Of a DNA stretch of 30,043 nt, positions 6,070 to 21,856 are shown piece after piece. Both the position numbers and the translations under genes were made by a program. This DNA comes from Chthoniobacteraceae bacterium (GTDB taxonomy: Bacteria; Verrucomicrobiota; Verrucomicrobiia; Chthoniobacterales; Chthoniobacteraceae). The notes under the pieces were generated by a model. It had not been told where the DNA came from and did no database searches. It saw nothing but the letters and a program-made list of their open reading frames with translations. Numbering within the stretch: position 1 is the first letter of the stretch; each line of letters begins with the position of its first letter. The stretch is taken from contig JANNWY010000260.1 of assembly GCA_031409335.1 (NCBI GenBank), positions 1 through 30,043 on the forward strand, given 5' to 3'.

Positions 6070-7536
6070 TCACAGTTTCGCAGCCCCTTCGACCGGAGTC
6101 GAACGCCAGACGGCATCGCTCGAGTCGTCACCGCCACCGTCCCAGCAGTCCTTTCCCACGGAATACAGAATCACGCCGCTGCCATCCGCCCTGCGAAAGC
6201 GCAGCGCCTGCCCATCGAAGCGGTCGCGCGGCAGCTTGGGCAGCAGGCTTGGCATGAGTTCGTGCAGTTCTTTCGGGTAGTCGCCGTTACGAAGGCGAAA
6301 GCGTTCCAGCGCGCACGCCACAAGCGACAGGTCCACGTTCGTCTGAATCTCTCGGCAGAGGCTCCGATTGCCATCCAACATGTAAGCAGCTGGCTGAGCG
6401 AAAAACCAATACGGAAACCGGATCCAGTCGCTCGGATCGTCGAAGTTGGGTGGCAAGATGTCCGCCGGGATGCCAGGAGGGATGTCGATTGCCGGATGGG
6501 CTTCCGACGCAACGGCGATGCCTAAATGTTGGTCATACCATTCATTCAAGCGCAGTTGATTTTGAGCAAACCAGCCCGGTGGAATCAGCATGGCCCAGGA
6601 CCACTTCGGCACTTCCGCAGGGCGCCTGCTGTTGAAGGCGGTCCACAAGCGCGGATTCGCTTTCAGGAGATCGAGCGTGTTGTTCGAAAATGCTCTCTCA
6701 CTTGAAACCCCGAACGTGAAGTCCGACATCAAATCAATCGTGGCGAGATCGTTAGTGACCGAGCTTAGCTCCTGATCGGACCAAATGTGAGCGGCGAGCC
6801 CACGTTGAATACTGTTCGTCGAACAAGCGGTAAGCATCACACGCAACATGCAGGCAAGGAGCGTCGGCTGGCCTTGAAAAGCACTTGCGTGTCGATGCCC
6901 CACTCGCCAGTCAATCCACGCATCATGCGCCTGGCCTTTTGCCTGGAGAGCGGCCACTCGCAGGTTGATCAACTGGCTGATTTGCAGGACCCCGCCCAGA
7001 TTCCAAAATGCCGCATCAGATCCTTTCTCCCATTCGCCATCGAGCCGACTGCGGGGCCGGGAAAGTCCTTCGCGCAATTGGTTGAGCACCGGCTCATATC
7101 TTTCGAGACCCCGGAGCACGTCGGCAACAGGGTCGTCCGTCGTGGCTGAAATCAGAGCATATTCAATCATGCATTTTCCGATCGCAGGAAAGTCCACTGG
7201 TTCGCCTTGCGCGATGTAACGTCCGCATTCTACCGGTAGTTCACACGCCTTTCTTGCACGCTCACGCACAGCCGGATCTCCGGATAGGAGTTCGCGATAA
7301 ATCGTGCTCCCCGCAAAATTCTCCCCATCCGGGATCCGCGATGGGATGAAATCCTTGAAGTCGAGCTTCGCGCCGCGCGCTTCGGCGTCTGCTCGGTAAC
7401 GAGCCCACGCCTTCTCGCCGCGATAGTTTTCAATCGCATACGCCGCGACGATCAACGTAGCCAAACACGCGAGGGCAAATACACTGCGCTGCCAGAATTT
7501 TCGCGATGCGAGAAGGCGGAGCGATGGGTGTTTCAT
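6070..7536 (-). CDS. Membrane-anchored protein with C-terminal GspG(pseudopilin)-like motif
   Basis: Start at ATG 7536 (MKHPSLRLL), ATGA-coupled to the upstream stop; N-terminal TM; C-terminal ACALERFRLRNGDYPKELHEL...PRDRFDGQ...LYSVGKD...GG resembles the T2SS protein G C-domain. Confidence 0.8.
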   Translation of the reverse strand: MKHPSLRLLASRKFWQRSVFALACLATLIVAAYAIENYRGEKAWARYRADAEARGAKLDFKDFIPSRIPDGENFAGSTIYRELLSGDPAVRERARKACELPVECGRYIAQGEPVDFPAIGKCMIEYALISATTDDPVADVLRGLERYEPVLNQLREGLSRPRSRLDGEWEKGSDAAFWNLGGVLQISQLINLRVAALQAKGQAHDAWIDWRVGHRHASAFQGQPTLLACMLRVMLTACSTNSIQRGLAAHIWSDQELSSVTNDLATIDLMSDFTFGVSSERAFSNNTLDLLKANPRLWTAFNSRRPAEVPKWSWAMLIPPGWFAQNQLRLNEWYDQHLGIAVASEAHPAIDIPPGIPADILPPNFDDPSDWIRFPYWFFAQPAAYMLDGNRSLCREIQTNVDLSLVACALERFRLRNGDYPKELHELMPSLLPKLPRDRFDGQALRFRRADGSGVILYSVGKDCWDGGGDDSSDAVWRSTPVEGAAKL

Positions 7537-7871
7537 CGGGTGCCGGGCGGTTGCTGGAACTGGCGCAGAAGTTCCTGATAATCCGCGTACGCGAAGAAGG
7601 GATGGCGCGACTGCGACGGCACCGCTGCGAAAGATTCGACGCGGGCGGGAGACGGGGATTCTCGCGCGAGCACCAATGCCCAAACCGCCGCGAGCGCGCC
7701 CCAGGCCAGCGGCGACGGCCACAGCCAGTCGCGCCACGTCCAGCGTGTCGGCTTTTCTTCACAGCGACCCAATGCTCCGAGCGCGCGATTCAGCGCCGTG
7801 CTGTGTGCGGCATCGTCGCACGGCGGCACGCGCAGCTTCGCGAGGCGCGCTTTTAGTTCATCGTCATTCAT
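7533..7871 (-). CDS. Small single-TM protein, putative anti-sigma factor
   Basis: 112 aa from MNDDELKARL; overlaps the sigma stop (ATGAATGA); TM segment WPSPLAWGALAAVWALVLA. Confidence 0.75.
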   Translation of the reverse strand: MNDDELKARLAKLRVPPCDDAAHSTALNRALGALGRCEEKPTRWTWRDWLWPSPLAWGALAAVWALVLARESPSPARVESFAAVPSQSRHPFFAYADYQELLRQFQQPPGTR

Positions 7872-8406
7872 GGCGGGTGAGCAGGGTTTTGAGTTTCCTT
7901 TTCGCGACGAAAATCCGCCACGAGACAGTCGTCTCCGCGCAACCCAGCACGCGCGCCGCTTCCGCGTGGGAGAGATCCTCGAAATACACCGCGACCACCG
8001 CCGCGCGCAGTTCCGCAGGCAGTGCCGCCAGCGCCTCGCGAGCCGCATCGAAGGCGGGCGGGCGCTCCGCCGAGTCGATCTCCGCACGGAGTTTTGCCGC
8101 ATCCGCCAGCTTCCGCCGCCGCCCTTCACCGCGCTGCCAGTCGCGCGCGGTGTTTGCGCAAATCCGGTAGAGCCAGTGGCGAAACGGCGTGCGCGCCCGG
8201 TAGCCGCCGATGGCCCGCGCGGCCTTGATGAACGTCTCCTGCGCGATGTCCTGCGCTGTCGTGCCATCGAGGCAGAGGCGGAAGGCGAAGGCGTGAATCA
8301 TCGGATGGTGGCGGTGGAAGAGTTCGGCAAATGCCCCGGGCTTTCCGGCGATGGCTGCTTGGACGGTGATTCCTTCGTCGATGGCGTCCGCGTCGGAGAG
8401 AAGCAT
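7864..8406 (-). CDS. ECF RNA polymerase sigma factor
   Basis: 180 aa from MLLSDADA; region 2 AQDIAQETFIKA...FRHWLYRICANTARD; region 4 LSHAEAARVLGCAETTVSWRIF. Confidence 0.93.
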   Translation of the reverse strand: MLLSDADAIDEGITVQAAIAGKPGAFAELFHRHHPMIHAFAFRLCLDGTTAQDIAQETFIKAARAIGGYRARTPFRHWLYRICANTARDWQRGEGRRRKLADAAKLRAEIDSAERPPAFDAAREALAALPAELRAAVVAVYFEDLSHAEAARVLGCAETTVSWRIFVAKRKLKTLLTRHE

Positions 8407-8423
8407 GAGGTCTTTGATGTCTG

Positions 8424-8450
8424 AAACGACGGGGGCGCAGAAATCCTTGG
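8424..8450 (-). promoter_or_regulatory. Candidate autoregulatory ECF promoter
   Basis: Minus strand CCAAG-N17-CGTTT just upstream of the sigma ATG; a CGT-containing -10 is typical of ECF promoters. Confidence 0.25.
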
Positions 8451-8545
8451 TACGAATTTTGAAAGAGATAACACGCAAGCGGGGCTTTGCCTGCCCGTGG
8501 ATCGCGGAGCTTTCAAAACGCGCCCCCGCTCTGGCATAAAAAGTC

Positions 8546-9526
8546 GTGCGTTTTTCCACCCTCTCCATCGCGCTCGTGCTCGCCGTCACGGCAAACGCTG
8601 CGCAGCTCGAAGTCTTCACCATAACCAGCACAAAGCTGCGCGGCAATCCGCTCGGCGATCCGGTCACGCGGCGAGTCGCGATTTTCAAACCGGACGGGGT
8701 GAAGGAAAGGGCGCTCGTCGTGTATTTGCCGGGTTGGGGCGGGTCGTCGGAGGATGCGATCGCGCAGGGTGCGGGCGGGTGGTTTGGGCAGGTCGTGGAC
8801 CGGCTGGCGGCGAAGGGGATGGCCTTCCGCATCGCGGTCGTCGATGGGCGCTCGCGGTATGGCGGGAGCCAGTTTTTGAATTCGAGCGCGACTGGCGATT
8901 ACGCGGACTACGTATCGGAGGAAATCGTGCCCGCGCTTTTTAAGGCGGGTGAAAAAACGTGCATCATTGCGGGGCATTCCAGCGGCGGCTACGGCGCGCT
9001 CATGCTCGCCATTTCGCACCACGAAAAATTCCCCGCCGTCGTCGCGCTCTCACCCGACAGCAACTTCGAGATCACGCACAAACCGCTCGTGGAAGATCCC
9101 TCCGTCCGCGCCGTCACCCGCGCCGAACTCGACGCTGCGATGGCTCCCGCGAAACCCGCGAACATTCCCGCGAGCCTCATCCTCGGCCTCTGCGCCAACT
9201 ACGCGCCGATCGCCGAAAAACCCGGCCGCTTCGAGTGGCTCTACGACGATCGTGGCAAGTGGCGCGCGGAAGCTTGGGCGCGCTGGATCGCGCTCGATCC
9301 GCTCACGGTCGTCCGCAAAAATCCCGATGCCTTCGCGAAGACGCAGCGCGTTTACCTCGACGGCGCGGAGCACGATGAATTCGGCGCAAATATCGGCGCG
9401 CGGAAGATCCACGACGTCATCCGCGAAAAGGTCCCGCGCTCCACGTTCTACGAATCGCCGGGGCATCACTCCGACCGGCTTGTGGAGCGGCTGATTCGCG
9501 GACTGACGGTCGTTTCAGGGAAATAA
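8546..9526 (+). CDS. Secreted alpha/beta-hydrolase (putative esterase, Fes-like family)
   Basis: Signal peptide; LRGNPLGDP; VYLPG; nucleophile elbow GHSSGGYGA; downstream D (HDEF) and H (GHHS) triad candidates. Confidence 0.88.
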   Translation: MRFSTLSIALVLAVTANAAQLEVFTITSTKLRGNPLGDPVTRRVAIFKPDGVKERALVVYLPGWGGSSEDAIAQGAGGWFGQVVDRLAAKGMAFRIAVVDGRSRYGGSQFLNSSATGDYADYVSEEIVPALFKAGEKTCIIAGHSSGGYGALMLAISHHEKFPAVVALSPDSNFEITHKPLVEDPSVRAVTRAELDAAMAPAKPANIPASLILGLCANYAPIAEKPGRFEWLYDDRGKWRAEAWARWIALDPLTVVRKNPDAFAKTQRVYLDGAEHDEFGANIGARKIHDVIREKVPRSTFYESPGHHSDRLVERLIRGLTVVSGK

Positions 9527-9992: not shown

Positions 9993-11819
9993 ATGAACAC
10001 GCTCGATACTTTTTTCCAATGGCTCCTCGCCGCCAGCGTGCGCGCTTCGTTGCTCGCGATCGCGGTGCTGGCTCTCCAATTCGTTTTGCGGCTCTGGTTG
10101 CCTGCGCGGTGGCGGCACGCGCTGTGGCTGCCGGTTGTATTCGTCCTGATCGCGCCAGTCCTCCCCGCCAGCCGGTGGAGCTTGGAAAATCGCATGGCGT
10201 CGCCGCTGGTGGTTCGATCCGCGCTTTTGCCGACGGGAACCGGGACGCCGGATATGGACACGGCGCCGGAAACTGAGATGCCGACAGACCTAGCGGCTTC
10301 GGCAGCCACGAGATCGCGCGTCCACGGGATTGTGCTTTTCGCCTGGCTGGCGGGAGCGTGCGGCTTCTTGGGAGCGGGTGCGATCGGATATAGGCGGAGC
10401 TTGCGACGAATCGGGCGAGGCGCTGTCGAAACGGACGCGACGCTCGCGGAGGCGGTGGCAAGTGTGGTGCGGCATTTGAAGCTGCGTCGTGCGCCGCGCG
10501 TCGTCGTTTCCGCAGCGATCGGAAGCCCCGCTATCGCGGGACTTTTTCGCCCAAGGTTGTTGCTGCCCACGGGATTTTCGGAGGACTTTTCCGACACCGA
10601 AAAGCGACTCATCCTGCGCCACGAACTCATGCATCTGAAGCGCTGCGACCTGCCGCTGAATTGGTTGCTCTGCCTTCTCCAGGCACTGCATTGGTTCAAT
10701 CCGCTGCTCTGGTTCGCCTTTGCGCGGATGCGGTCCGACCGCGAGATGGCCTGCGACGCGCAAGTGCTCGCCGCCGATGCCGAAGACCGCCGCGCCGACT
10801 ACGGCCGCGCCTTGCTGAAGCTCCAAGATTCCATGCCTTGTCCCGGCCTCAGCCTCGCGTTCGTCGGCATCTTCGAGCGCAGTGCTGGGCTGCGCTCGCG
10901 TATCCGCGCCATCGCCGGGTTCCGTCGCGCACACCACGCCTGGGGAATCGTCGTGCCGGTGGGAATCGCTATGCTGACGGCGCTCGGCGCAACCCGCGCG
11001 TCCCACGCCAAAGCGCCGCCGCAAACCGCCCCGCCGCTGCCGAAACGCGCGGCGGATTCCGGGAGCAAATCCGCGCGTGAGGCGCGCTCCGAGGCCCCGC
11101 ACATCGAGATCGAAGCCCATTTCATCGAAGTCCCCGAAGCCATCTGGAAACAGATGGCCGCCGCGGGATCGTGGGAGGTCGTGCGCGGCCAGCGTGAATG
11201 GTCCCGCCTCGTCGCGAGCACGGACCGCAAGGATCAGGAATCGCTGATTGAGTCCTGGTTTGGCAAAAAAGTGACCGCCGATTCGGGGGGATTTCTGCCG
11301 CTTGTTACCAGGGCTTTGAGTGAAAAACCGGGCGTCGATCTACTCTCCGCTCCGAAGGTGACGACGCGCTCAAATCAGAACGCGATCATCGAGATCGTCC
11401 GCGAGTTTAAGTACCCGACGGCTTGGAAACCGGGCGAAAAAAAGGAGGACGCATGGGTGCCGACCGTATATGAAACTAGGAATACCGGCGTGACCCTCGA
11501 AGCCGAGCCCACGCTGACGAACGATGGGAAAATCAACCTATGGGCCACACCGCAGGTCGTGGAATGCGAGAGCTTCAAGGACATCGGCCACGGACGAAAG
11601 CAGCCGATTTTCTCAGAGCGCAAAGTGCGGACGAACGTCACGCTGCGCTCCGGCCAAACGGTAGTGCTGGGTGGGGCGCTGCGGGAGACTCAGCAGACGG
11701 TCGAGAACAAGGTTCCGGTCCTCGGGGATGTGCCTTTGCTTGGGCGACTGTTTCGGACCTCGCAAAAGCAGGTGGTAAAGCGATGCCTGGTGGTGTTGGT
11801 CACACCGCGAATTCCTTAG
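9993..11819 (+). CDS. BlaR1-like M56 metallopeptidase fused to a secretin C-terminal domain
   Basis: M56: HELMH, ALHWFNPLLW, REMACD. Secretin: LLSAPKVTT, NTGVTLEAEP, PIFSERKVRTNVTLRSGQTVVLGG, KVPVLGDVPLLGRLF, LVVLVTPRI. Confidence 0.92.
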   Translation: MNTLDTFFQWLLAASVRASLLAIAVLALQFVLRLWLPARWRHALWLPVVFVLIAPVLPASRWSLENRMASPLVVRSALLPTGTGTPDMDTAPETEMPTDLAASAATRSRVHGIVLFAWLAGACGFLGAGAIGYRRSLRRIGRGAVETDATLAEAVASVVRHLKLRRAPRVVVSAAIGSPAIAGLFRPRLLLPTGFSEDFSDTEKRLILRHELMHLKRCDLPLNWLLCLLQALHWFNPLLWFAFARMRSDREMACDAQVLAADAEDRRADYGRALLKLQDSMPCPGLSLAFVGIFERSAGLRSRIRAIAGFRRAHHAWGIVVPVGIAMLTALGATRASHAKAPPQTAPPLPKRAADSGSKSAREARSEAPHIEIEAHFIEVPEAIWKQMAAAGSWEVVRGQREWSRLVASTDRKDQESLIESWFGKKVTADSGGFLPLVTRALSEKPGVDLLSAPKVTTRSNQNAIIEIVREFKYPTAWKPGEKKEDAWVPTVYETRNTGVTLEAEPTLTNDGKINLWATPQVVECESFKDIGHGRKQPIFSERKVRTNVTLRSGQTVVLGGALRETQQTVENKVPVLGDVPLLGRLFRTSQKQVVKRCLVVLVTPRIP

Positions 11820-11840: not shown

Positions 11841-12764
11841 CTATTTCACGCCAGTCGCGAGCACGGTCTGAAACTGCGGGTTCTGCTCATCGCGCGTCAC
11901 GACGGTGACTTCGATGTCCGAAAATCCGGCGTCTTCCAGAAAGCCGTGGAGTTGCGATTCCGTGAAGCCGAGCCAGGTGTCGGCGTAAAGCTCGCGCGCC
12001 TTTTCAAACTGATGCGCGAGCAGATCGAGGATCGCGACGCGGCCGCCTTTTTTCAAAATGCGAAACGCCGCCGCGACGGCGCGCGCGGGACTGGCCGCGT
12101 GATGCAATGCCTGACTCAGCAACGCGAGATCGACGGTGCCTGCCGGGATCGGCGGCGTCTCCAAATCGCCGTGGCGGAATTCGAGATTTTTGAAGCCGTG
12201 TTTCTTCGCCAGTGCCGCGCCGAATTCGACCATCTTTTCGGAGTTGTCCACAGCGATGACTTTCTTCGCGCGCTTCGCCAGCAGTTGTGAAATCGTGCCT
12301 TCACCCGCGCCGAGATCGGCGATGACCATTGGCGGGGCGAGCGCGAACAGCAGATGCGCCACGCCTTCCCAAGTCCGCCCGGGGCAGTATGCGCGGCCGA
12401 ATTTTCCCGCGAGCTGGTTGAAATATTCGCGCGCCTTGTCCTGCCGCTTTTTCAGCGCAAGGCGGAGCGCCTTCTGATCGCGCGCCGCCTCGGGCAATTC
12501 CTTCGCGCTCGCCGCGATCACCGACGCAAACTCGGCGTGCGCCGGGTCGTCCGTGAGCGCGTAATAAATGTTCTTCCCCGCCCGCCGATCCTGCACCAGC
12601 CCGGCCTGGCGGAGCTGGCCGAGGTGCATGGAAATCCGCGATTGCCCCATGCCCAAAACCTCCTGAATCTCGACGACGGACAGTTCCTCCTTTTGCAAAA
12701 GGAGCAGCAGCCGCAGCCGTGTTTCATCGGCGATCAGGCGCAGAGATTTTACAATTGACGCCAT
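11841..12764 (-). CDS. sahR: ArsR HTH + SAM-methyltransferase fusion regulator (SahR/SamR-like)
   Basis: N-terminal ArsR (ADETRLRLL...QSRISMHL..LRQAGLV); C-terminal DLGAGEG motif I; adjacent to metK. Confidence 0.85.
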   Translation of the reverse strand: MASIVKSLRLIADETRLRLLLLLQKEELSVVEIQEVLGMGQSRISMHLGQLRQAGLVQDRRAGKNIYYALTDDPAHAEFASVIAASAKELPEAARDQKALRLALKKRQDKAREYFNQLAGKFGRAYCPGRTWEGVAHLLFALAPPMVIADLGAGEGTISQLLAKRAKKVIAVDNSEKMVEFGAALAKKHGFKNLEFRHGDLETPPIPAGTVDLALLSQALHHAASPARAVAAAFRILKKGGRVAILDLLAHQFEKARELYADTWLGFTESQLHGFLEDAGFSDIEVTVVTRDEQNPQFQTVLATGVK

Positions 12765-12781
12765 GCTTTAGTAGCTTAGAC

Positions 12782-12801
12782 GTATCACCGCATCATGATT
12801 G
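12782..12801. promoter_or_regulatory. Candidate SahR operator
   Basis: ATCA-N8-TGAT palindrome (12784-12799) in the 99-bp divergent sahR/metK spacer, consistent with the ATCA...TGAT core recalled for SahR boxes. Confidence 0.45.
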
Positions 12802-12863
12802 GTCAATGCGTTGTTTGACCAGTCTTCCACATCCTACCAACCAAAATCCCAAATAACTCCCGC

Positions 12864-14039
12864 ATGTCCCGTCCCTTTATTTTCTCGTCCGAATCCGTCG
12901 GTGAAGGCCATCCCGACAAGGTTGCCGACACCATTTCCGATGCCGTTCTCGACGCCTGCCTCGCGCAGGACATCCGCAGCCGCGTAGCCTGCGAGACTTA
13001 TGTGAAGAGCAACATCGCCATCGTCGGCGGCGAGATCACCACCAAGGCGAAACTCGATTACGTGCAGATCACGCGCGATGCCGTCCGCGAGATCGGCTAC
13101 GTGAATGACGACGACATTTTCCACGCGGACAAAATCTTCGTGCAGAACATCCTCACCGCGCAGTCGCCCGATATCGCGCAGGGCGTGGATGCAAAGAAGG
13201 CCAAGGGCAAGAAGCACGCCGAGCAGGGCGCGGGCGACCAAGGCATCATGTTTGGCTACGCGAGCGATGAGACGCCGGAGCTGATGCCCGCGCCGATCAT
13301 GTTTGCGCACCGCCTCGGGCGGAAGCTGACGGAGATTCGCAAAGCGGGCAAAGCGGCAAAGTGGCTGCGGCCAGATGCGAAGTCGCAGGTGTCCGTCGAG
13401 TATGTCGATGGGAAGCCTACGCGGATCACGAACGTCGTAATTTCCACGCAGCACGCGGCGGATGCGGAGCACGCGGAGATCGAGAAATTTTGCATCGAGA
13501 AAGTCATCAAGGCCGTGCTGCCCAAAGGCATGCTAACCAAGGACACCGAGTATCTCATCAACCCGACCGGCAAGTTTGTCGTCGGCGGGCCGCAGGGCGA
13601 CACCGGTCTGACTGGGCGCAAGATCATCGTGGATACCTACGGCGGCATGGGTCGGCATGGTGGTGGCGCTTTCTCCGGAAAGGATCCATCGAAGGTCGAT
13701 CGCAGCGCCGCTTACATGGGTCGCTGGGTGGCGAAGAACGTCGTCGCCGCCGGCCTCGCCGCGCGCTGCGAAGTGCAATTTGCCTACGCCATCGGGCATC
13801 CGGAGCCGGTCAGCGTGCATATCGATGCCTTCGACACTGGCACCCTGTCCGATGAGTCGATCCTCGCTGCGGTGCTCAAGGTTTTCAGCTTCAAGCCGGC
13901 GGACATCGTGCAGCAGCTCAACCTGCTCCGTCCGATCTACTCGAAGACGACGAACTACGGTCACTTCGGCAAGGACGACAAAGACCTGACGTGGGAAACC
14001 ACGGACAAGGCTGCGGCGCTCAAGAAGCACGCCAAATAG
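12864..14039 (+). CDS. metK: S-adenosylmethionine synthetase
   Basis: [38 protein letters not shown] signatures. Confidence 0.99.
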
Positions 14040-14160: not shown

Positions 14161-16173
14161 ATGTCCAGTTTTCGCCTTTTCGATCTCAATCCCGAGCAGG
14201 AGCGCGCCGTGCGCACGACCGAGGGACCGCTGCTGATCCTCGCTGGCGCGGGCACGGGGAAGACGCGCGTCATCACGATGCGCATCGGTTTTCTCATCGC
14301 GCAGGGAGTCGCGCCGGACCACATTTTGGCGGTCACTTTCACGAATAAAGCGGCGAACGAAATGCGCGAGCGGCTGGCGAAGATGATGGATCCTGCCGTG
14401 GCGAAAAAGGTGACGGCCTCGACTTTTCACGCGCTGTGCGTGCGCATCCTGCGGCAGGACATCGAGCGACTGGGCTATAAGAAGAATTTTTCCATCTACG
14501 ACGACGGGGATCAGATCGGGATGATCAAAAAGATCATCACGCGCACTGCGGCGAAGGATGAAAAACTCGATCCGCAGGTGGCGAAGAATTTGATCTCGAA
14601 GGCGAAGAACCACGGCTGGCGCGAGGTCTTGCCCGGTGAGGAAAAGTCGCTCGTCGGCGCGGTTTTCGCGCGGTATCAGGCGGAGTTGAAGACGCTGAAC
14701 GCGGTGGATTTCGACGACCTGCTCGGGCTCACGGTGAAGCTGCTCACGGAGCACGCGCTGGTGCGCGAGAAGTGGCAGCGGAAGTATCGCTACCTGATGA
14801 TCGACGAGTTTCAGGACACGAACCGGCTGCAACTCGAACTCATCACCAGCCTCGCCGACGCGCGGAAAAACGTGGCGGTGGTGGGCGATGACGACCAATC
14901 CATCTACGGCTGGCGCGGTGCCGAAGTGTCGAACATCCTCGAATTCGAGGCGCACTTTCCGAACCCCGTCGTCGTAAAGCTGGAGCAAAATTACCGCTCG
15001 ACGAATGCCATCCTGAACACGGCGAATGCGCTCATTAAGAACAATCCGCGCCGCCGCCCGAAGCAGCTCTGGAGCGCCGCGGGCGACGGAGCGAAGGTGC
15101 GGGTGATCCAGATGACGGACGACCGGCAGGAGGCCGAGTTCATCGTGAACGAGATCGCCAACCGACTGCTCGTCGAGGGCCGCAAGCACGAGGATTTCGC
15201 GATCCTTTTCCGCATGAACGCGCAGTCGCGCCTGCTCGAAACGAATCTGCGCGCGCAGAAAATCCCGTATCGCGTGGTCGGCGGGAAGAGCTTCTTCGAC
15301 CGGCGCGAAATCAAGGAGCTGCTCGCCTACATGCAGTGCCTCGTGAACAACGACGACGACGTGTCGCTGCTGCGCATCGTGAACGTGCCGGCGCGCGGAC
15401 TTAGCTCCGCGACCGTCGAGCGTGCGACGGAATGGAGCGCGAAAAATCACTGCAGCGTTTTCGCCGCGCTGAAGTCGTCGGAGTTCCAGCACGAACTTTC
15501 GTCGCGGACGCGCGCGAGCATCGAAGTGTTCGTGGCGCTGATGGATCGCTACGAAACGCGGCTCAACACGCCACTGACGAATCACGCCGAAATTCTGCGC
15601 GAGCTGATCAAGGAAGTCGGCTACCTCGAAGACCTGCGCCGCACCTGCAAGACGCCCGCCGAGTCCGACGGGCGCGAGGGCAACGTGAGCGAGATGATCA
15701 AATCGTTTGAAGAATATCAGTCGCGCTCGACGGAAGGGCTGCGCGGATTTCTCGACGAGATGAGCCTGCGGCAGGAGCGCGAGGACGAGGAGGATGATTT
15801 GAAAGGGCCGGGCGTCACGCTCATCACGCTGCACGCCGCGAAGGGTCTGGAATTTCCAAACGTCTATCTCATCGGCCTCGAGGAAGGCCTGCTCCCGCAC
15901 GATCGCTCGAAGGTGGAAGGCACCGTCGATGAAGAGCGTCGCCTGCTCTACGTCGGCATCACGCGCGCCCGGGAGACGCTCGCGCTGACATGGTGCGGCC
16001 ACCGGATCAAGTGGGGAAGCCCATCGCCGGGCACGCCGAGTTCATTCATCAAGGAACTCCCGCACGAGTGGATCGACCGCTGCGGCGCGACGCAGATCCT
16101 GAACGCACCAGTCGCGCAGGACTCGGTGAAAGACCGCTTCGCCGCGATGAAGGCGCTGCTGGAGAAAGCGTGA
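14161..16173 (+). CDS. uvrD: UvrD/Rep/PcrA superfamily I DNA helicase
   Basis: LNPEQ, AGAGTGKT, DEFQDTN, VGDDDQSIYGWRG, NYRS, TLHAAKGLEF, EERRLLYVGITRA; no long C-terminal Tudor-like tail (Rep-like length). Confidence 0.95.
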   Translation: MSSFRLFDLNPEQERAVRTTEGPLLILAGAGTGKTRVITMRIGFLIAQGVAPDHILAVTFTNKAANEMRERLAKMMDPAVAKKVTASTFHALCVRILRQDIERLGYKKNFSIYDDGDQIGMIKKIITRTAAKDEKLDPQVAKNLISKAKNHGWREVLPGEEKSLVGAVFARYQAELKTLNAVDFDDLLGLTVKLLTEHALVREKWQRKYRYLMIDEFQDTNRLQLELITSLADARKNVAVVGDDDQSIYGWRGAEVSNILEFEAHFPNPVVVKLEQNYRSTNAILNTANALIKNNPRRRPKQLWSAAGDGAKVRVIQMTDDRQEAEFIVNEIANRLLVEGRKHEDFAILFRMNAQSRLLETNLRAQKIPYRVVGGKSFFDRREIKELLAYMQCLVNNDDDVSLLRIVNVPARGLSSATVERATEWSAKNHCSVFAALKSSEFQHELSSRTRASIEVFVALMDRYETRLNTPLTNHAEILRELIKEVGYLEDLRRTCKTPAESDGREGNVSEMIKSFEEYQSRSTEGLRGFLDEMSLRQEREDEEDDLKGPGVTLITLHAAKGLEFPNVYLIGLEEGLLPHDRSKVEGTVDEERRLLYVGITRARETLALTWCGHRIKWGSPSPGTPSSFIKELPHEWIDRCGATQILNAPVAQDSVKDRFAAMKALLEKA

Positions 16174-16197
16174 CGCGGAAGATCGCCGCCGACCGTA

Positions 16198-16386
16198 CCC
16201 ACAAACCCTGTCATTTCGACCGGAGCGCAGGCGGGCCAGCGGGCGGAGCGGAGTGGAAAAACCTCTAATTTTTCTTCGAGCGGAGGTGGTGCGCAGCAAC
16301 GAGCGCGTCCAACTTCCCACCTCTGCCGTCCGCGGAAGTGAGAGGTTCCTCCACTGCGCTCCGGTCGAAATGACAGGCTTTGTGGG
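16198..16386. repeat. Complete palindromic (REP/MITE-like) element with 33-bp terminal inverted repeats
   Basis: cccacaaaccctgtcatttcgaccggagcgcag (16198-16230) vs ctgcgctccggtcgaaatgacaggctttgtggg (16354-16386), 1 mismatch; inner stems gtggaaaaacctct/agaggttcctccac and gaggtgg/ccacctc; lies between convergent uvrD and yajQ. Confidence 0.92.
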
Positions 16387-16443
16387 AGCGGCTTCGCCGC
16401 ACACGGAATCCCGAATAACGGGCATTCTTCTGCGCGGCCTACG

Positions 16444-16935
16444 CTAGTCGCGAAAATTCCCGAAGTTCAGCGCCACGCCGAAATCCTTGCCCCGGCAGAA
16501 CGCGATGACTTCCTGCAAGTCATCGCGCTTCTTCCCGTTCACGCGAATCTGCCGCTCCTGCAGCGTGCTCTGCACCTTGAACTCCTGCGCCTTGATCGCT
16601 TTCACGATCTCCTTCGCCTTGTCACCATCGAGTCCCTGCTTGATCACGAAATCCTGCGTCGCATGGCCGAGCGGCGAGATCACCGGATCTTTCCGCTCCA
16701 CATTGCGCAGGTCGATGTTCCGCTTCGCCAGCTTGCCCGTCACGATGTCGTGCAGCCCTTTCAAGCGCGAGCCATCCTCTGCCTTCAGCTCGATCTTTGA
16801 CTCCTTCTCGCTCCACTCGATCGTCGCCGTGCTACCCTTGAAGTCGAAGCGTGTCGCGAGTTCCTTGCGCGCCTGATTGATCGCGTTGTCGATCTCCTGG
16901 GTGTCGATTTCAGAAACGATGTCGAAGGAAGGCAT
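16444..16935 (-). CDS. yajQ: YajQ family nucleotide (c-di-GMP)-binding protein
   Basis: MPSFDIVSE...NA.NQA.KE...RFDFKGS...RV.GKKRDDLQ...F.NFRD. Confidence 0.97.
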   Translation of the reverse strand: MPSFDIVSEIDTQEIDNAINQARKELATRFDFKGSTATIEWSEKESKIELKAEDGSRLKGLHDIVTGKLAKRNIDLRNVERKDPVISPLGHATQDFVIKQGLDGDKAKEIVKAIKAQEFKVQSTLQERQIRVNGKKRDDLQEVIAFCRGKDFGVALNFGNFRD

Positions 16936-16941
16936 GGGTAG

Positions 16942-17265
16942 TTAGAGTGCGGCGCGCGCAGCGGTTTCGTCGGGGTAAAGGTGGAGGACTTGATCCAACC
17001 GCGCGATTTCAAAAATGTGACGCACGGTCGGCTGGAGACCAAACAGGCCGAGCTTGCCACCGTATGAATCCATGCGCTGAAGGCATTCGATGAAGAGCGC
17101 GAGGCCGGAGCTATCCATGTATTTCACGCGGCTCAGATCCACGAGGATGCGCTCGGTCTTACCCTCGATCAGCTCGTCGAGTTTCACCTTCACAACCGGC
17201 GTCTGGTAAAGGTCGATGTCGCCTTCCATGGCGAGGATGCCGAGAGAGTTGGTCGGGTCAGACAT
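16942..17265 (-). CDS. STAS domain anti-sigma factor antagonist
   Basis: GDIDLY...VDLSRVKYMDSSGLA (phospho-Ser motif)...VRHIFEIARL. Confidence 0.93.
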   Translation of the reverse strand: MSDPTNSLGILAMEGDIDLYQTPVVKVKLDELIEGKTERILVDLSRVKYMDSSGLALFIECLQRMDSYGGKLGLFGLQPTVRHIFEIARLDQVLHLYPDETAARAAL

Positions 17266-17267
17266 GG

Positions 17268-17876
17268 TTATTTTTTCGCCTCTGCTTTGCTGACGTTCAA
17301 GGTCCGCACCGAGCCATCGGCTTGCAGGCTGTTGTAGCTGCTCGATTCCGGCGTGCGCTGGTGCGGCGCCTCCCCGGCATTCACGAAATCGACCAGCAGA
17401 CGCACACGGTTCATTGGCACATTGAACGCCCCACGCGGTGTGTAGATTTTCGGCGCGTTGACAAGTTCGCCGTCAAAGGTCGGACGCCATTCGTAGCTCG
17501 TCTTTTTCTCCGCGAAGAAACTGATCCCCTCGGCGGCATCCTTCGTGAAGTTTAGCTTCGCTTTCAAATCCGCCGGGCACGTCAGAATTCCCGCTGTCAC
17601 GCCGTATGGCTTCAGCACGGTGTCGATGGGTTCCACCTTCGTGCCTTCGGGATAGACTGGGTTGGTCGGGTCCGTCTCAATGTAAGGCAGCGTGTTGTCG
17701 TGGTCCGCGCAGTAGAGGTTAATGCTCGCGCCGATCTGCTTGAGATTGCTCAGGCACTTCGTCGTGTCCGCATTGTCGATCACGCGTCCGACGACCGGGA
17801 AGAGCAGTCCGGCAAGCAGGGCGATGATGGCGATGACGGAGATCAGTTCGATGAGGGTGAAGCCACGCTGCTTCAT
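17268..17876 (-). CDS. Prepilin-type N-terminal cleavage/methylation protein with H-X9-DG-like C-terminal motif
   Basis: RG/FTLIELISVIAIIALLAGLLFP; KCLSNLKQIG; CPAD; H...YNSLQADGSV. Confidence 0.93.
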   Translation of the reverse strand: MKQRGFTLIELISVIAIIALLAGLLFPVVGRVIDNADTTKCLSNLKQIGASINLYCADHDNTLPYIETDPTNPVYPEGTKVEPIDTVLKPYGVTAGILTCPADLKAKLNFTKDAAEGISFFAEKKTSYEWRPTFDGELVNAPKIYTPRGAFNVPMNRVRLLVDFVNAGEAPHQRTPESSSYNSLQADGSVRTLNVSKAEAKK

Positions 17877-18913
17877 TTCCCCTCCTGCCGGCTTTGTTTG
17901 TTTTGAATGTAGTCGCGGTAACGCTCGCTGCGCTGCTGCGGCGTCTTCATCGCGTCGCGCTTTGCCATGCCGCTGAAAAACTTTTCCTGGGTCGCCGGAT
18001 CCTGCATCCGCTCTTCCATTTTCGCGCGCCGCTCTTCCGGGGTGAGGTCTTTCATGCTCTCGAAAAATTTCTTCCCCTCATCAAACTCCGCCTGCGCCTT
18101 CGCCCGCTTGTCTTCCGGCATTTGATTGATCTTCGCCTGCATGAGGTCGCCCATCGCGCGCATCATCTTTTCCATCGCCGCATCATCCTGGCCGGTGCCG
18201 CCCCCCATCATGCCGAGCGCGCGGCGCACTGGTTCGGGCGGGCCGTTCTCCGCCGTTTGCGTTGCCGCATCGCGGCGGCGTCCGCTCAGGAAAAAGACCT
18301 GCTCCACCACGCCGCCTGCCGCTTTCGCGAGCCGCGGCATCACATCCTGAATCTCCCCGCTTTTCGGCGTGGAAGAAATCGCGGGATTCCAATCCACCGG
18401 CGTTTCCAATCGCGCGGACACATTCTTCGCAGCCTGCTCCAGATAAGCCTGGAGCGTCCCCTCCACCGCGGGCTTCACTTCCCAGCGGTCGATGCGCGGA
18501 TCGCTCGTGCCTTCATCGCCGCCGACCATCATCCCACCGGGGATGGGAACGTGAAACCGCTGCCAGCCCTCCGGCTTCTCGCCCGCGGCGCGGGCGGTGA
18601 GCAGCGCGTCGATCGGAGCTTTCGTGGGCGCGAGGAAATAGCCCAGCTCGACGCGCGCGTCGGCCACATTTGCGAGCACTTCGAGCGCATAGGAAAGCGG
18701 CACCTTGTCCACATTCATCGTTACCGTTTTGTCCGCCTCCAGATTTGTGCGAATGCGGATGCCGCCTTGTTTCTCGATGCTTTTGATCACCGTCGGCAGC
18801 GCCGCATCCGTCGCGTGGACGGTGATGAGACCCCAGCCAGCCCAGACGCGGTACCCGACATTGCCGAGCACGAGGACGATGGCGGCGAGGATGAGGAGGC
18901 GTTGGCGATTCAT
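17873..18913 (-). CDS. Membrane-anchored periplasmic protein with STN/secretin-N-like segment and helical C-terminus
   Basis: N-terminal TM; ITVHATDAALPTVIKSIEKQGG...VTMNVDKVPLSYALEVL resembles STN/N0; C-terminal MPEDKR.../LTPEERRAKM repeats; overlaps the prepilin start. Confidence 0.8.
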   Translation of the reverse strand: MNRQRLLILAAIVLVLGNVGYRVWAGWGLITVHATDAALPTVIKSIEKQGGIRIRTNLEADKTVTMNVDKVPLSYALEVLANVADARVELGYFLAPTKAPIDALLTARAAGEKPEGWQRFHVPIPGGMMVGGDEGTSDPRIDRWEVKPAVEGTLQAYLEQAAKNVSARLETPVDWNPAISSTPKSGEIQDVMPRLAKAAGGVVEQVFFLSGRRRDAATQTAENGPPEPVRRALGMMGGGTGQDDAAMEKMMRAMGDLMQAKINQMPEDKRAKAQAEFDEGKKFFESMKDLTPEERRAKMEERMQDPATQEKFFSGMAKRDAMKTPQQRSERYRDYIQNKQSRQEGK

Positions 18914-18972: not shown

Positions 18973-19824
18973 CTAGAATTTCCAATCAATCCCCGGCAGG
19001 TCGAAAATCATGGTCATCGACCCATGGCCGTCGGGGCGCACTTCGGTAGCGGTCCGCAGGCCCGTGCCGAGGTGGAGCGATTGACCGACCGCGTGCTGCT
19101 CCCGCTGCGCAGCGGGGATGAGCGCTTCGATGCGTTGCGTCGCCTCATTCAGCGCAGTGCGGCGACGCAGGTGCCAGTCGTCGCGCTCCGTCTCGGGGCG
19201 CTGCGGGCGGGTCAGCTTTTGTTCGCGGAGTTGGAAAAAATCCCGCTCGATCTGCTGGCGCACTCGTTCCGCAGTGGCGGCATCGAGCTTCAGCCGCGTG
19301 CTCAGCGTGGCCGTGTGCAGCCGCGCTATTTCCGCGGGCGTGTCTTCCATTTCGCCGATCACTTCCATGCGTTTCAGCCACGACATCATTTCCTGCCCAA
19401 AACGGTTATTTTCTTCCGGCTTTATTTCCTCGTTCTTCTTCTGTCGTCCCAGAAAGTCGGCAAACGAACGCACAAAATCCCCGGCCTGCTGGCCGAGTTC
19501 CTCGATGCGCCCGAGCGAGCGCCATTCTTCATTCGACATCGCGGGCAGGCTTTTGCCGATCTCGACCGCCTTCGCTTCGGCGGCGCGCAGCAACGCGGTT
19601 TCGCGCTCGATCTCCGCCGCCACGCTCGCGCTTTCTACCGTCGGCGCGGGGTCTTTCGCGGGAGCGACTGAGGTTGGCGCGGAGCGCAAAGCGACGAGTT
19701 CAGTTTTCAGCGCGCGGCTTTCGCGGAAGATCTTCACGCCCAGCACGAGCCCGCCGCACATCACGAGGCCGAGGGCTCCGAGCGCCAGGGCCGTGGATTG
19801 TGGCAAGCCAGCAGGCGCGCTCAT
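18973..19824 (-). CDS. Single-TM protein paralogous to the C-terminal domain of the upstream sigma factor
   Basis: 283 aa from MSAPAGLPQ, ATGA-coupled to the sigma stop; TM LALGALGLVMCGGLVLGV; colinear motif matches to the sigma C-terminus. Confidence 0.85.
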   Translation of the reverse strand: MSAPAGLPQSTALALGALGLVMCGGLVLGVKIFRESRALKTELVALRSAPTSVAPAKDPAPTVESASVAAEIERETALLRAAEAKAVEIGKSLPAMSNEEWRSLGRIEELGQQAGDFVRSFADFLGRQKKNEEIKPEENNRFGQEMMSWLKRMEVIGEMEDTPAEIARLHTATLSTRLKLDAATAERVRQQIERDFFQLREQKLTRPQRPETERDDWHLRRRTALNEATQRIEALIPAAQREQHAVGQSLHLGTGLRTATEVRPDGHGSMTMIFDLPGIDWKF

Positions 19825-21275
19825 GGCTGCCCGCCTCCGCCCAGCATTTCGTAATCGGAGGAGCCGCTCTCGCGCCCGCCGAACAGTTCCACGAAACTCT
19901 CCGGAATCGGTTTGCCTGGCGGCAATTGGCTGGCGAGAGATTTGTAGAGCTGTTTGGTCGCGGCATTCCGTCGTGTGTCCCACTCTGGGGCCTTACCCTT
20001 GGGCCGCTGCGGCAGCGCGAGTCCTTCCTGCTGGAGGCCGCGCAGCCAGTCGCGCGTGCGATTTTCCACGAGAGTCCGCGCAGCTTCATCGAGTCCAGTC
20101 ATCTCGCCGTAGAGCGTGGCGTAAAAGCGCGCCGCCTTTTCCGGCGCACGCTCCAGGCGCGCAATTTCGGGCATGATCCCAAAGAAATCCGTCATCCCCT
20201 CCGCCGCGTTTTCCGCCCGCGCCCGCAGCGCCGCTTGCTGTTCAGGGCTCAGCTCCGTTTTGCTGCCCTGGGCATCTGTGACTGACTCCATGATCTGCAG
20301 CGTGCGCGCCATCTTCTTCGCCATTGCGTCCACCGTGCCGAACGAAACGACGACTTCGGTTTCGACCTTCTCCTTCAGCGCGAGCAGCTCGGAGACGCGA
20401 TTTTCCGCCGCGATGCGTGCGCTGCGGCGGGCGGCGAGTAGAGCTTCCGGATTTGCTCCGGGACTGGCTCCGGCAGGGAGCGCGGCGAGTTGTGGATTCG
20501 CACTGCGGATTTGCGCGATCTCCGTCCGCAGGGTGGCGTTGGCAGTCCACTCCAGCGCGAGTGGAGTGGCAATGAGCGCGGCGGCGCAGACGACTTTGAG
20601 GGTGGTTTGAGACATGAGTGTGGTGAGAACGGCGGCGGTGGATGTCGTGGCCAGAGTAGCGGCGGCGAGCCCGGCTTGCGCGGGGATGCTGGCCTGTTGC
20701 GCGACGGCGGCAGTGAGGAGTGCGGTTGCCGAAGTGCCAATGCCGCGGCGGCGGAGTTGCGTCTCCAGATTTTGCAAAGCGCGCGACACGCGTTTGCGCG
20801 CGGCGGCTTCCTCGATGGAAAGCGCGTGCGCCATTTCGGGATACGAGAGGTCTTGGAAAAAATGCAGCACCAGCGACTCGCGTTCGCTTTCACCCAACCG
20901 CGCCAGCGCATCCTCCACGAGCGGCCAGTGCGCCTCGGACGGGGAAATCGGCGGCTCTTTTCCCGAACGCTCGTGCGCCCCGCGCCGCCGCATCTCCGCC
21001 TGCGCCGCCCGTGCGCCGATGTGGCTCGCGGCCTGATACAGCCAGCCCGCGACATTCGTCCGGCCGAGCAGCGTGCGCGCCTTCGCCGCGAGCGTGGCGA
21101 AGACCTGCTGTGCCACATCGCGCGCCAGCTCCGCATCACCCGTCCGCCTCAGCGCCGCCCCGAGCACGAGCCGCTGATAATTCCGCACGATCTCCGCAAA
21201 CGCGTCCTCATTTCCCTCCCGAGCCCACTGGCTCAGGAGCGCGGAATCATCGCGGATGGAAGGTTCACCGTGCAT
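19821..21275 (-). CDS. ECF sigma-70 factor with TM segment and C-terminal extracytoplasmic extension
   Basis: DDSALL...AFAEIV...ARDVAQQVF...GWLY; LSYPEMAHALSIEEAAARKRVSRAL; Ala-rich linker, hydrophobic segment, ~240-aa tail. Confidence 0.93.
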   Translation of the reverse strand: MHGEPSIRDDSALLSQWAREGNEDAFAEIVRNYQRLVLGAALRRTGDAELARDVAQQVFATLAAKARTLLGRTNVAGWLYQAASHIGARAAQAEMRRRGAHERSGKEPPISPSEAHWPLVEDALARLGESERESLVLHFFQDLSYPEMAHALSIEEAAARKRVSRALQNLETQLRRRGIGTSATALLTAAVAQQASIPAQAGLAAATLATTSTAAVLTTLMSQTTLKVVCAAALIATPLALEWTANATLRTEIAQIRSANPQLAALPAGASPGANPEALLAARRSARIAAENRVSELLALKEKVETEVVVSFGTVDAMAKKMARTLQIMESVTDAQGSKTELSPEQQAALRARAENAAEGMTDFFGIMPEIARLERAPEKAARFYATLYGEMTGLDEAARTLVENRTRDWLRGLQQEGLALPQRPKGKAPEWDTRRNAATKQLYKSLASQLPPGKPIPESFVELFGGRESGSSDYEMLGGGGQP

Positions 21276-21282
21276 TTACCCA

Positions 21283-21313
21283 TATACTCCGCACGGCGGG
21301 CGGATTTGTGACA
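21283..21313 (-). promoter_or_regulatory. Candidate autoregulatory ECF promoter
   Basis: Minus strand TGTCACA-N16-GGAGTATA ending 7 nt before the sigma ATG; TGTCACA is a known ECF -35 type (e.g. ECF41-like). Confidence 0.45.
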
Positions 21314-21328
21314 GGAAACTTCCGCACG

Positions 21329-21364: not shown

Positions 21365-21589
21365 GTGATCCCGACCATCGAACAAACTGAGGCCGACCTT
21401 GCCCGGATTGTGGATTTGGCGCGCTAAGGTGAGGAGGTGGTCATCACGCGCGGCGGCGAGCCGATTGCGAAATTGACCGGCTTGGTTCCAGTCCGGCCAC
21501 TCGGTTATTTTGCGGACTGTTACGGGGCGGAGGAGGCGGATGAATCCAACGAATTGGCGCGGCGTTTGGTGCGAAGGATCGTCGAGTGA
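21365..21589 (+). pseudogene. Phd/YefM family antitoxin with premature TAA at 21425-21427
   Basis: Manual translation: VIPTIEQTEADLARIVDLAR*GEEVVITRGGEPIAKLTGLVPVRPLGYFADCYGAEEADESNELARRLVRRIVE*; GEEVVITRxGxPxAxL is the Phd signature. Confidence 0.88.
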
Positions 21590-21604: not shown

Positions 21605-21856
21605 CTCAGTTTGCCGTCGTCCCGGAGGGACAGTGGAAATTAGCCGGTGGTGAAAGCGAGTCCCCGAGCGGGAACCACCGGATCCAGTCAGCAAATGAGT
21701 CCGCCCCGGCGGGGCGCTGGAGTTCCGCGCACGCCGACCTTTCCATCGTCCCTCCGGGACGGGCTCGCTTTTGGTGGAAAGTCCGGTGGTTGCGTTCGTG
21801 GCTCACTTCACCACCGGCTAATTTCCGCAGTCCCTTCGGGACGAAGATAAACTGAG
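21605..21856. repeat. REP-like multi-hairpin palindromic element
   Basis: 37-bp inverted arms 21618-21654 / 21807-21843 (3 mismatches), outer ctcagttt/aaactgag, inner aaccaccgga/tccggtggtt, and four small hairpins of the form gtccc-nnn-gggac or gcccc-ggc-ggggc. Confidence 0.9.

Follow-up and report, generated by a model that had tools for sequence, protein, structure and literature searches.

An extracytoplasmic function sigma factor and a sigma-less paralog of its C-terminal extension are encoded as a conserved gene pair in Verrucomicrobiota

We describe a pair of adjacent genes in a 30,043-nucleotide stretch of DNA from a Chthoniobacteraceae bacterium (assembly GCA_031409335.1, contig JANNWY010000260.1, positions 1 to 30,043; hereafter, the window). 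The first gene encodes an extracytoplasmic function (ECF) sigma factor with a long C-terminal extension (P0002; the extension is called the tail), and the second encodes a sigma-less protein paralogous to that tail (P0001; the partner). Both open reading frames (ORFs) were confirmed on the minus strand at the coordinates given in a preliminary description of the window (Table 1). We propose, and give an even chance, that tail and partner would form a stalk-paired, envelope-facing complex that keeps the sigma factor from acting and lets proteolysis free it only upon a signal. The basis for this proposal is the homology of the two proteins, their old divergence, their co-inheritance, the stop/start overlap of their genes, and purifying selection.

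The homology of tail and partner, first noticed in the preliminary description, is significant by two methods. BLASTP aligned the ECF tail (residues 224 to 484) with the partner colinearly from end to end (22% identity, 238 columns, E = 2e-9), and HHalign matched the family profile of the tail core to that of the partner core (probability 99.91, E = 5.6e-34, 151 columns). The motif pairs that had been quoted in support (SFGTV/SLGRI, LERAPEKAARF/MEDTPAEIARL, and ALPQRP..W..RR/TRPQRP..W..RR) all fall in aligned columns. The expected likeness of fold was also borne out: AlphaFold2 models of tail and partner (predicted local distance difference test [pLDDT], 88.5 and 88.8) agree in their series of helices. 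In both, the anchor helix continues as a stalk, after which come a linker, another stalk helix, and a helical core. The two stalk helices span residues 3 to 39 and 56 to 86 of the tail model, and the domain that follows conserves E-x-x-x-S-x-G, E-x-x-P, GL..RP, and W..RR. The partner model adds a C-terminal beta-hairpin (local pLDDT, 90 to 93), whereas the tail model has no strand. "Sensor," the word previously applied to the shared domain, is a label and not an observation. A transmembrane segment and a coiled coil had been claimed ahead of each domain; this layout is indeed shared, but the hydrophobic segment of the ECF is marginal (Kyte-Doolittle hydropathy over 19 residues, 1.5 versus 2.27 in the partner).

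The shared domain constitutes a new family, for which the models are confident and no matching structure was found. A partner profile retrieved 226 representatives at E 0.001 (50% clustering) from among 1.84 billion proteins, and a sigma domain was present in 45 of 191 stored family proteins. The domain takes three forms, namely, ECF tails, hairpin-bearing partners, and solo anchored proteins. Neither tail nor partner has a significant sequence match in Pfam, NCBIfam, or the PDB. Foldseek returned no match to either model at E 0.001 (SigA hits have root mean square deviations of 15 to 18 Å), VIA-align reached at best Z 7.3 to 7.4 over generic helical hairpins of 52 to 55 residues with none at Z ≥ 8, and the ESM Atlas gave unnamed clusters (best, 0.84) that serve as leads only. 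The fold queries were the tail and partner models rather than the core by itself, for which a known fold may exist. A link to Spy, CpxP, and CnrX, prompted by an L-x-L-[DT]-x-x-[QT] loop, was unsupported by profile, PDB, and fold searches: PF13801 and PF07813 are absent from the top 25 of the 123 families listed for 57 members, the core profile scored at best 13.2 bits against 20 PF13801 loci, PF13801- or PF07813-type proteins are not among the fold-search matches listed, and a CnrX-type PDB match (3zg1, E = 0.0064) covers the anchor and coiled coil only. A conserved anchored helical protein of 245 to 257 amino acids is encoded immediately behind E2 in a 2-oxoacid dehydrogenase operon (L103, L104, L105, L101, and L041). 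The family in this position (G136, G140b, G150, G151, and G164b) is weakly similar to the shared domain and at most a distant relative, and it was left uncounted.

P0002 belongs to the ECF sigma factors (group 4). It scores above the cut-offs of PF04542 (26.7 versus 24), PF08281 (37.4 versus 25.7), and TIGR02937 (52.2 versus 42.9), and it has no Pfam match to sigma regions other than sigma2 and sigma4 (sigma3, 1.2). There is no cysteine in residues 1 to 229 or in the invariant and near-invariant columns of 37 related ECFs, and neither histidine nor cysteine occurs in residues 151 to 229 of P0002. K227, which precedes the predicted helix, is at least 90% conserved among the 37 ECFs, and 26 of them have a Met-x(1-6)-Lys pattern before the anchor. 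An internal start at the conserved Met, giving a sigma-less product, is possible from these sequences.

Table 1. Coordinates of the ECF-partner locus and its parts in the window
Feature	Position	Strand	Basis
P0002, ECF sigma factor of 484 aa, the last 305 forming the C-terminal extension	19821..21275	-	ORF, family profiles
Sigma2-sigma4 core, residues ~24-174, no cysteines	20754..21206	-	TIGR02937, PF04542, PF08281, PF04545
Uncharged Ala/Thr-rich linker, residues 180-226, ending M-S-x-T-T-L-K	20598..20738	-	Sequence
Predicted transmembrane helix, residues ~228-243	20547..20594	-	Hydropathy only; continuous helix in model
Predicted coiled-coil stalk of two helices, residues 244-307; heptad core positions include R283 and R287	20355..20546	-	Model, heptad table
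Unnamed all-alpha domain, residues ~307-455	19911..20357	-	Model, conservation
P0001, sigma-less partner of 283 aa with N-terminal anchor, then stalk and shared domain	18973..19824	-	ORF, homology, model
Predicted signal anchor, partner residues 12-30	19735..19791	-	Kyte-Doolittle 2.27
Partner-specific C-terminal beta-hairpin, residues 256-274	19003..19059	-	Model strands 256-262, 268-274
ATGA stop/start overlap of ECF and partner genes	19821..19824	-	Sequence
TTTnnn-GTCACA-N16-GGA promoter-like motif	21283..21318	-	GTCACA 21307-21312, GGA 21288-21290

We infer that the ECF and partner genes are translationally coupled at their ATGA. Coupling is suggested by an [A/G]TGA at the upstream stop in all 17 junctions compared (ATGA in 15, GTGA in 2), the partner being opened by the overlap in 16 of them. 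That the overlap is kept across three subfamilies fits production of sigma factor and partner at a one-to-one ratio.

The two proteins were described at first as a domain and its free-standing duplicate, and the phylogeny does not agree with this. We built a quick maximum-likelihood tree from the cores of 48 tails, 44 partners, 19 solo proteins, and 4 divergent proteins (115 in all, near-duplicates and fragments excluded). One of its branches (SH-aLRT, 98) separates all 44 partners, together with three divergent partner-like proteins and three half domains, from the solo class and the 45 full tails. Partner monophyly was not rejected in the approximately unbiased (AU) test (p-AU = 0.86), while joining the window partner to the window tail was rejected (p-AU = 0.00017), placing the partner in a separate, old lineage. 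Because local duplication is rejected, the partners group apart, and they carry the extra hairpin, the duplication is old. After this single event, tail and partner diverged together into three subfamilies or more (~22 to 25% identity between the three).

The partner is under purifying selection, with ratios of nonsynonymous to synonymous substitution (dN/dS) of 0.20 to 0.40 in 11 comparisons; tail ratios were 0.29 to 0.45 in 11 of 13 comparisons (0.85 to 0.89 in the two closest pairs) and sigma ratios 0.09 to 0.18 in 10, all of these comparisons being mutually dependent. The same genome encodes a second ECF-partner pair on the minus strand of another contig (C229; G000:C229 49627-52004, equivalent to L001 5628-8005). 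Only the two paired ECFs have long tails among the 35 ECF-like ORFs found in this genome. Against three relatives, the sigma part of the second pair has dS values of 1.1 to 1.6, well above those of its tail (0.24 to 0.35), which suggests that its sigma moiety was swapped.

Across 151 genomes of the family, with 16 candidates scored per genome, a sigma domain fused to the full shared domain was found at 16 loci in 14 genomes, and a partner-class gene came next at all 16 (the contig ends within one of these partners, and two of the ECFs are broken). A partner-class gene also lies next to an ECF at L106 and L188, and an ECF tail is directly upstream at 4/4 metagenome partner loci. Outside the family, matches occurred in 3 of 329 order-level and 5 of ~390 class-level genomes, none with a sigma domain (6 candidates scored per genome). 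Full-length named relatives were verrucomicrobial only, comprising one Chthoniobacteraceae and one Akkermansiaceae metagenome-assembled genome; the Akkermansiaceae-named record (L106) carries the full pair. The L106 partner is 65% identical to the partner of the second pair (P0004) despite the different family name, which suggests horizontal transfer. One scan of genome contigs confirmed no loci, and in a second scan, which was swamped by unrelated ECFs, 2 of 80 matches were full length.

Several loci depart from this arrangement. Three ECFs that belong to this group and likewise have the motif upstream retain only the C-terminal half of the domain (L097, L098, and L099, in G066, G062, and G030, respectively). 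The partner class gives these halves their highest scores, and in G066, the only one read throughout, the half follows a Pro-rich linker. In G031 (L015 8921-9760) the sigma part has been deleted; what is left is an intact tail ORF, opening with the conserved Met that precedes the anchor, and an intact partner. One locus (G089) has decayed, and three further partners lie at contig edges. Divergent sigma-less tandem pairs in G018 and G077b are weak evidence, having partner-like downstream genes and upstream ORFs that match at E = 1e-5 and not significantly. Patchy occurrence (14/151 genomes) and broken copies in G089, G090, and G155 are what a one-off tandem duplication without joint function would leave. 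That explanation, to which we assign practically no probability, is refuted by the rejection of local duplication, by retention of the pair in three subfamilies and two named families, and by purifying selection. The two matters on which the preliminary description had rested its case therefore stand in its favor, as the alignment is significant and the pair is conserved rather than a one-off.

The TGTCACA sequence reported upstream of the ECF gene is present at positions 21307 to 21313 of the minus strand, with GTCACA starting 37 nucleotides before the ATG. Of the 20 ECF upstream regions compared, 18 have GTCACA 36 to 40 nucleotides ahead of the start codon, and GGA mostly follows 16 nucleotides later; the motif is farther upstream in the two exceptions. 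For the C229 pair, it lies 361 nucleotides upstream, beyond an 11-codon ORF and a small ORF. Given this conservation ahead of ECFs, the motif is likely autoregulatory. When the 7.9-Mb genome was scanned with a matrix built without the window site, that site came out on top (29.2 bits, versus shuffled maxima of 19.5 and 20.7), with no clear second tier below it (59 matches above 14 bits, versus 39 and 46 in shuffles). A strict pattern gave 1, 2, 2, 1, and 1 matches in five genomes with the pair versus 2, 1, 0, 1, and 3 in five without it, and the 11 non-ECF matches mostly lacked a well-placed gene. Between 15800 and 22000 on the strand of the pair, we found neither a sigma-70 promoter-like site nor a terminator-like site downstream of the pair. 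At L106, two more copies of the motif (positions 914 and 2032) lie upstream of neighboring genes, a possible local regulon; one of these genes encodes another anchored coiled-coil helical protein.

A single membrane crossing with the domain outside is predicted as the simplest reading for the ECF because the two N-terminal modules, of ECF and partner, align. A different topology, in which the ECF crosses twice or not at all, would leave the domains cytoplasmic or the sigma factor never released, and the pair would then be a scaffold gating the sigma factor by conformation. We regard this as very improbable. Residues 180 to 241 of P0002, which include just one charged residue and two stretches of marginal hydrophobicity, would suit it, as does the description of ECF57 with about two helices in the available part of PMC7826278. 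The partner, on the other hand, has one clear anchor behind a short N-terminus, the M-S-x-T-x-x-K and hydrophobic segment of the ECF align to it, and the conserved K227 precedes the helix.

Heterodimerization of the partner with the tethered sigma factor, an earlier suggestion, gains weak support from complex prediction and is consistent with the stalk charges. The prediction for tail and partner scored 0.59 (best of three controls, 0.00) and so passed a mark that 116 of 157 solved complexes attain, as against 2 of 215 mismatches. Only 18 of the 157 complexes, however, but both mismatches, attain it with a score of 0.60 or less. The runs agreed in at least 62% of contacts, with a partner pLDDT of at least 76. 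At one core position of the second stalk helix, 33/44 partners but only 5/45 tails have E or D, whereas at the next core position 30/45 tails and 11/44 partners have R or K; in the window these charges are E75 of the partner, at a heptad core position, and R283/R287 of the ECF. Subfamily II pairs mostly lose both charges together. The pattern amounts to about three independent states with the register read from sequence, and the net stalk charge is nearly alike between classes, the difference being limited to the two core positions. Such a split suggests what a homodimer turned heterodimer would leave.

Both complementary charges are kept in 4/19 solo and 11/44 partner stalks. This fits self-pairing and hence a reading in which each protein forms homodimers and the partner acts as a decoy or competitor, taking up ligand or protease but not binding the ECF. 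The conserved core residues are common to both classes, and autoregulation would in that case yield negative feedback. Still, in the window's subfamily the ECF stalk has two basic core residues (R283 and R287) and the partner an acidic one (E75), which would disfavor homodimers, and a decoy does not need strict one-to-one coupling; we consider this reading improbable. Going beyond the stalk-paired complex, an ancestral homodimeric membrane receptor might have been duplicated and split into an obligate heterodimer, one subunit carrying the sigma factor and the charges enforcing pairing. This would be an undescribed mode of ECF control, and we put it forward only tentatively, as a doubtful extension.

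In the proposed stalk-paired mechanism, each protein would have one membrane helix with its N-terminus inside, so that both domains are predicted to be periplasmic. The two would sit side by side in the inner membrane, tail and partner binding through their coiled-coil stalks (as weakly predicted), and the partner would restrain release of the tethered sigma factor. By analogy with IutY (see below), the outer part may be trimmed before a site-2 protease frees the sigma factor; M50 site-2 proteases are encoded in the genome, which says no more than that such a route exists. The conserved motif suggests that the freed sigma factor would transcribe its own operon, making more partner and so less further release. 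The signal could be, at a guess, an envelope or cell-surface cue. An anti-sigma role of the classical form, raised in the preliminary description, is unlikely, since with ~11 residues ahead of its anchor the partner has almost no cytoplasmic part.

Several observations weigh against the restraining complex. Co-inheritance and the stop/start overlap are equally expected of a regulator and its target. The correlation of tail and partner distances over 15 related pairs (Mantel r = 0.98, 0/5000) shows co-inheritance only and is driven mainly by three subfamilies of related loci. The partner counts given above leave out the neighbors of seven ECF tails whose place in the tree is with the solo class, one partner (G164a) is set apart by a 430-bp insertion, and the three half-domain ECFs (G030, G062, and G066) have no adjacent partner. 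Solo copies without sigma factor or partner (G027, G060, G128, G282, and others) indicate that the domain works without this circuit. A complex score of 0.59 falls where the tool deems a pass more often wrong unless binding is likely beforehand, and, with the heterodimer alone modeled, it may reflect a homodimer interface shared by the paralogs. The ECF helix is marginal, and the 47-residue uncharged linker may add crossings and flip the side on which the domain lies. Finally, matrix and pattern searches found no regulon beyond the ECF's own promoter.

The main alternative, though a rather unlikely one, is that the partner is the output, an anchored envelope protein (e.g., a holdase or ligand-binding protein) switched on by the ECF, with the tail as a sensor from the same family for the same substrate and no need for contact. 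Solo members exist without any sigma factor, no other motif target was found in the genome, and the partner is the sole output in cis where the next gene is convergent (G013 and G155). The extra beta-hairpin is kept in the partner and absent from the tail, and in G031 both remaining ORFs are intact although the sigma part is lost. Planctomycete extensions have, moreover, been proposed to be captured downstream genes in the portion of PMC7671368 available. However, the split stalk charges and the weak complex pass would go unexplained, the tails group with the solo class and not within the partner class, and a regulon may have been missed, as in the five pair-bearing genomes just 3 of the ECF promoters fit the strict pattern. 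The output and heteromer readings are compatible, and both can hold.

Of known systems, the restraining complex most needs comparison with IutY of Pseudomonas putida, an ECF243 sigma/anti-sigma hybrid whose tethered ECF is released by Prc and RseP (available parts of PMC5411451 and PMC8999054) and which is, in the latter, the only hybrid with shown proteolytic release. As far as those parts describe it, IutY is likewise a single polypeptide of cytoplasmic ECF, membrane helix, and periplasmic part. Here, in contrast, the outer domain is all-alpha without a FecR-like match, and a paralogous partner gene follows. No TonB-dependent receptor was found among 23 window ORFs and 86 selected neighbors, a scan that covered part of the neighbors. 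ECF57 is confined to Planctomycetes (100%), with a conserved Cys pair (sigma2, sigma4) and WD40 or homeodomain-like extensions (available part of PMC7826278). It resembles P0002 as an ECF of the Planctomycetes-Verrucomicrobia-Chlamydiae (PVC) bacteria with a C-terminal extension. That of ECF57 spans the membrane, and release from it has been proposed (same source); that of P0002 may do so, having one or two marginal hydrophobic segments by hydropathy. P0002 differs in its verrucomicrobial relatives, the lack of the Cys pair, the all-alpha model, and a tail without WD40 or homeodomain-like Pfam matches; the ECF57 section of the PMC7826278 supplement, as available, mentions no paralogous partner. 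ECF48/52/53 of Actinobacteria (e.g., SCO4117) fuse an ECF to membrane segments and an extracellular domain, with proteolysis proposed (PMC8999054, in the part available); theirs is a zinc-finger anti-sigma domain, whereas the linker here has no His or Cys. P0002 lacks the testable features of ECF57, IutY, and ECF48/52/53.

Co-encoded membrane or periplasmic accessories control an ECF or a sensor in the RseA/RseB, CpxP, and CnrX/CnrY systems. In none of these, nor in that of SigY, is the accessory to our knowledge a paralog of a sigma-fused domain. SigY, RseB, CpxP, and CnrX offer an analogy for the partner's role, and no homology was found. Planctomycete ECF groups were reportedly defined by Jogler in 2012 and Wiegand in 2020, and that work may bear on novelty. 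For ECF31 SigY, a second co-encoded membrane protein is needed for control (YxlC and YxlD; PMC7826278, in the part available). In planctomycetes, gene capture has been proposed for extensions that have sigma-less homologs, are unrelated to one another, and lack conserved context (PMC7671368, in the part available). Such homologs make gene capture a plausible origin for the fusion described here as well; compared with the extensions in that part of the source, extension and neighbor are here conserved together and under selection. The word "paralog" does not occur in the text of PMC7671368. The pair had been called an undescribed architecture. In the literature searched, outside which some work on planctomycete ECF groups lies, we found no report of an ECF that has a paralog of its extension as partner, but the membrane-tethered design itself is already known.

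The genes 3′ of the pair differ from locus to locus. In the window, tightly spaced minus-strand genes at 16042-18913 follow the pair and are possibly cotranscribed; they were not found beside it at other loci. They comprise a gene for a 346-amino-acid protein that has no family and is hydrophobic in an N-terminal segment, genes for prepilin-type, STAS, and DUF520 proteins, and a 127-amino-acid ORF. On the other side, a plus-strand frame of 74 codons with one internal stop (21365-21589), neither piece of which has a Pfam match, resembles what we take to be a decayed Phd/YefM-type antitoxin. It is followed at 21605-21856 by a 50-nucleotide inverted repeat (88% complementary, arms 152 nucleotides apart) like a repetitive extragenic palindrome or a miniature inverted-repeat transposable element. 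Elsewhere lie a second, ordinary-length ECF and then a long ORF without a Pfam match (6070-8832, minus strand), a BlaR1-type M56 peptidase fused to a secretin domain (9993-11819, plus strand), and an ArsR-methyltransferase fusion divergent from an S-adenosylmethionine synthetase gene (11841-14039).

Membrane-tethered ECFs are common in PVC bacteria, and whether their extensions regulate anything is left open in the available part of PMC7671368. The overall tethered design is known, and the range of the present pair is patchy. The retention of an extension with a dedicated paralog, a coupled junction, and a promoter-like motif across subfamilies that are only ~22 to 25% identical argues for a real circuit. 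It would be a compact one, in which two genes and one 36-nucleotide motif would cover release, binding, and feedback.

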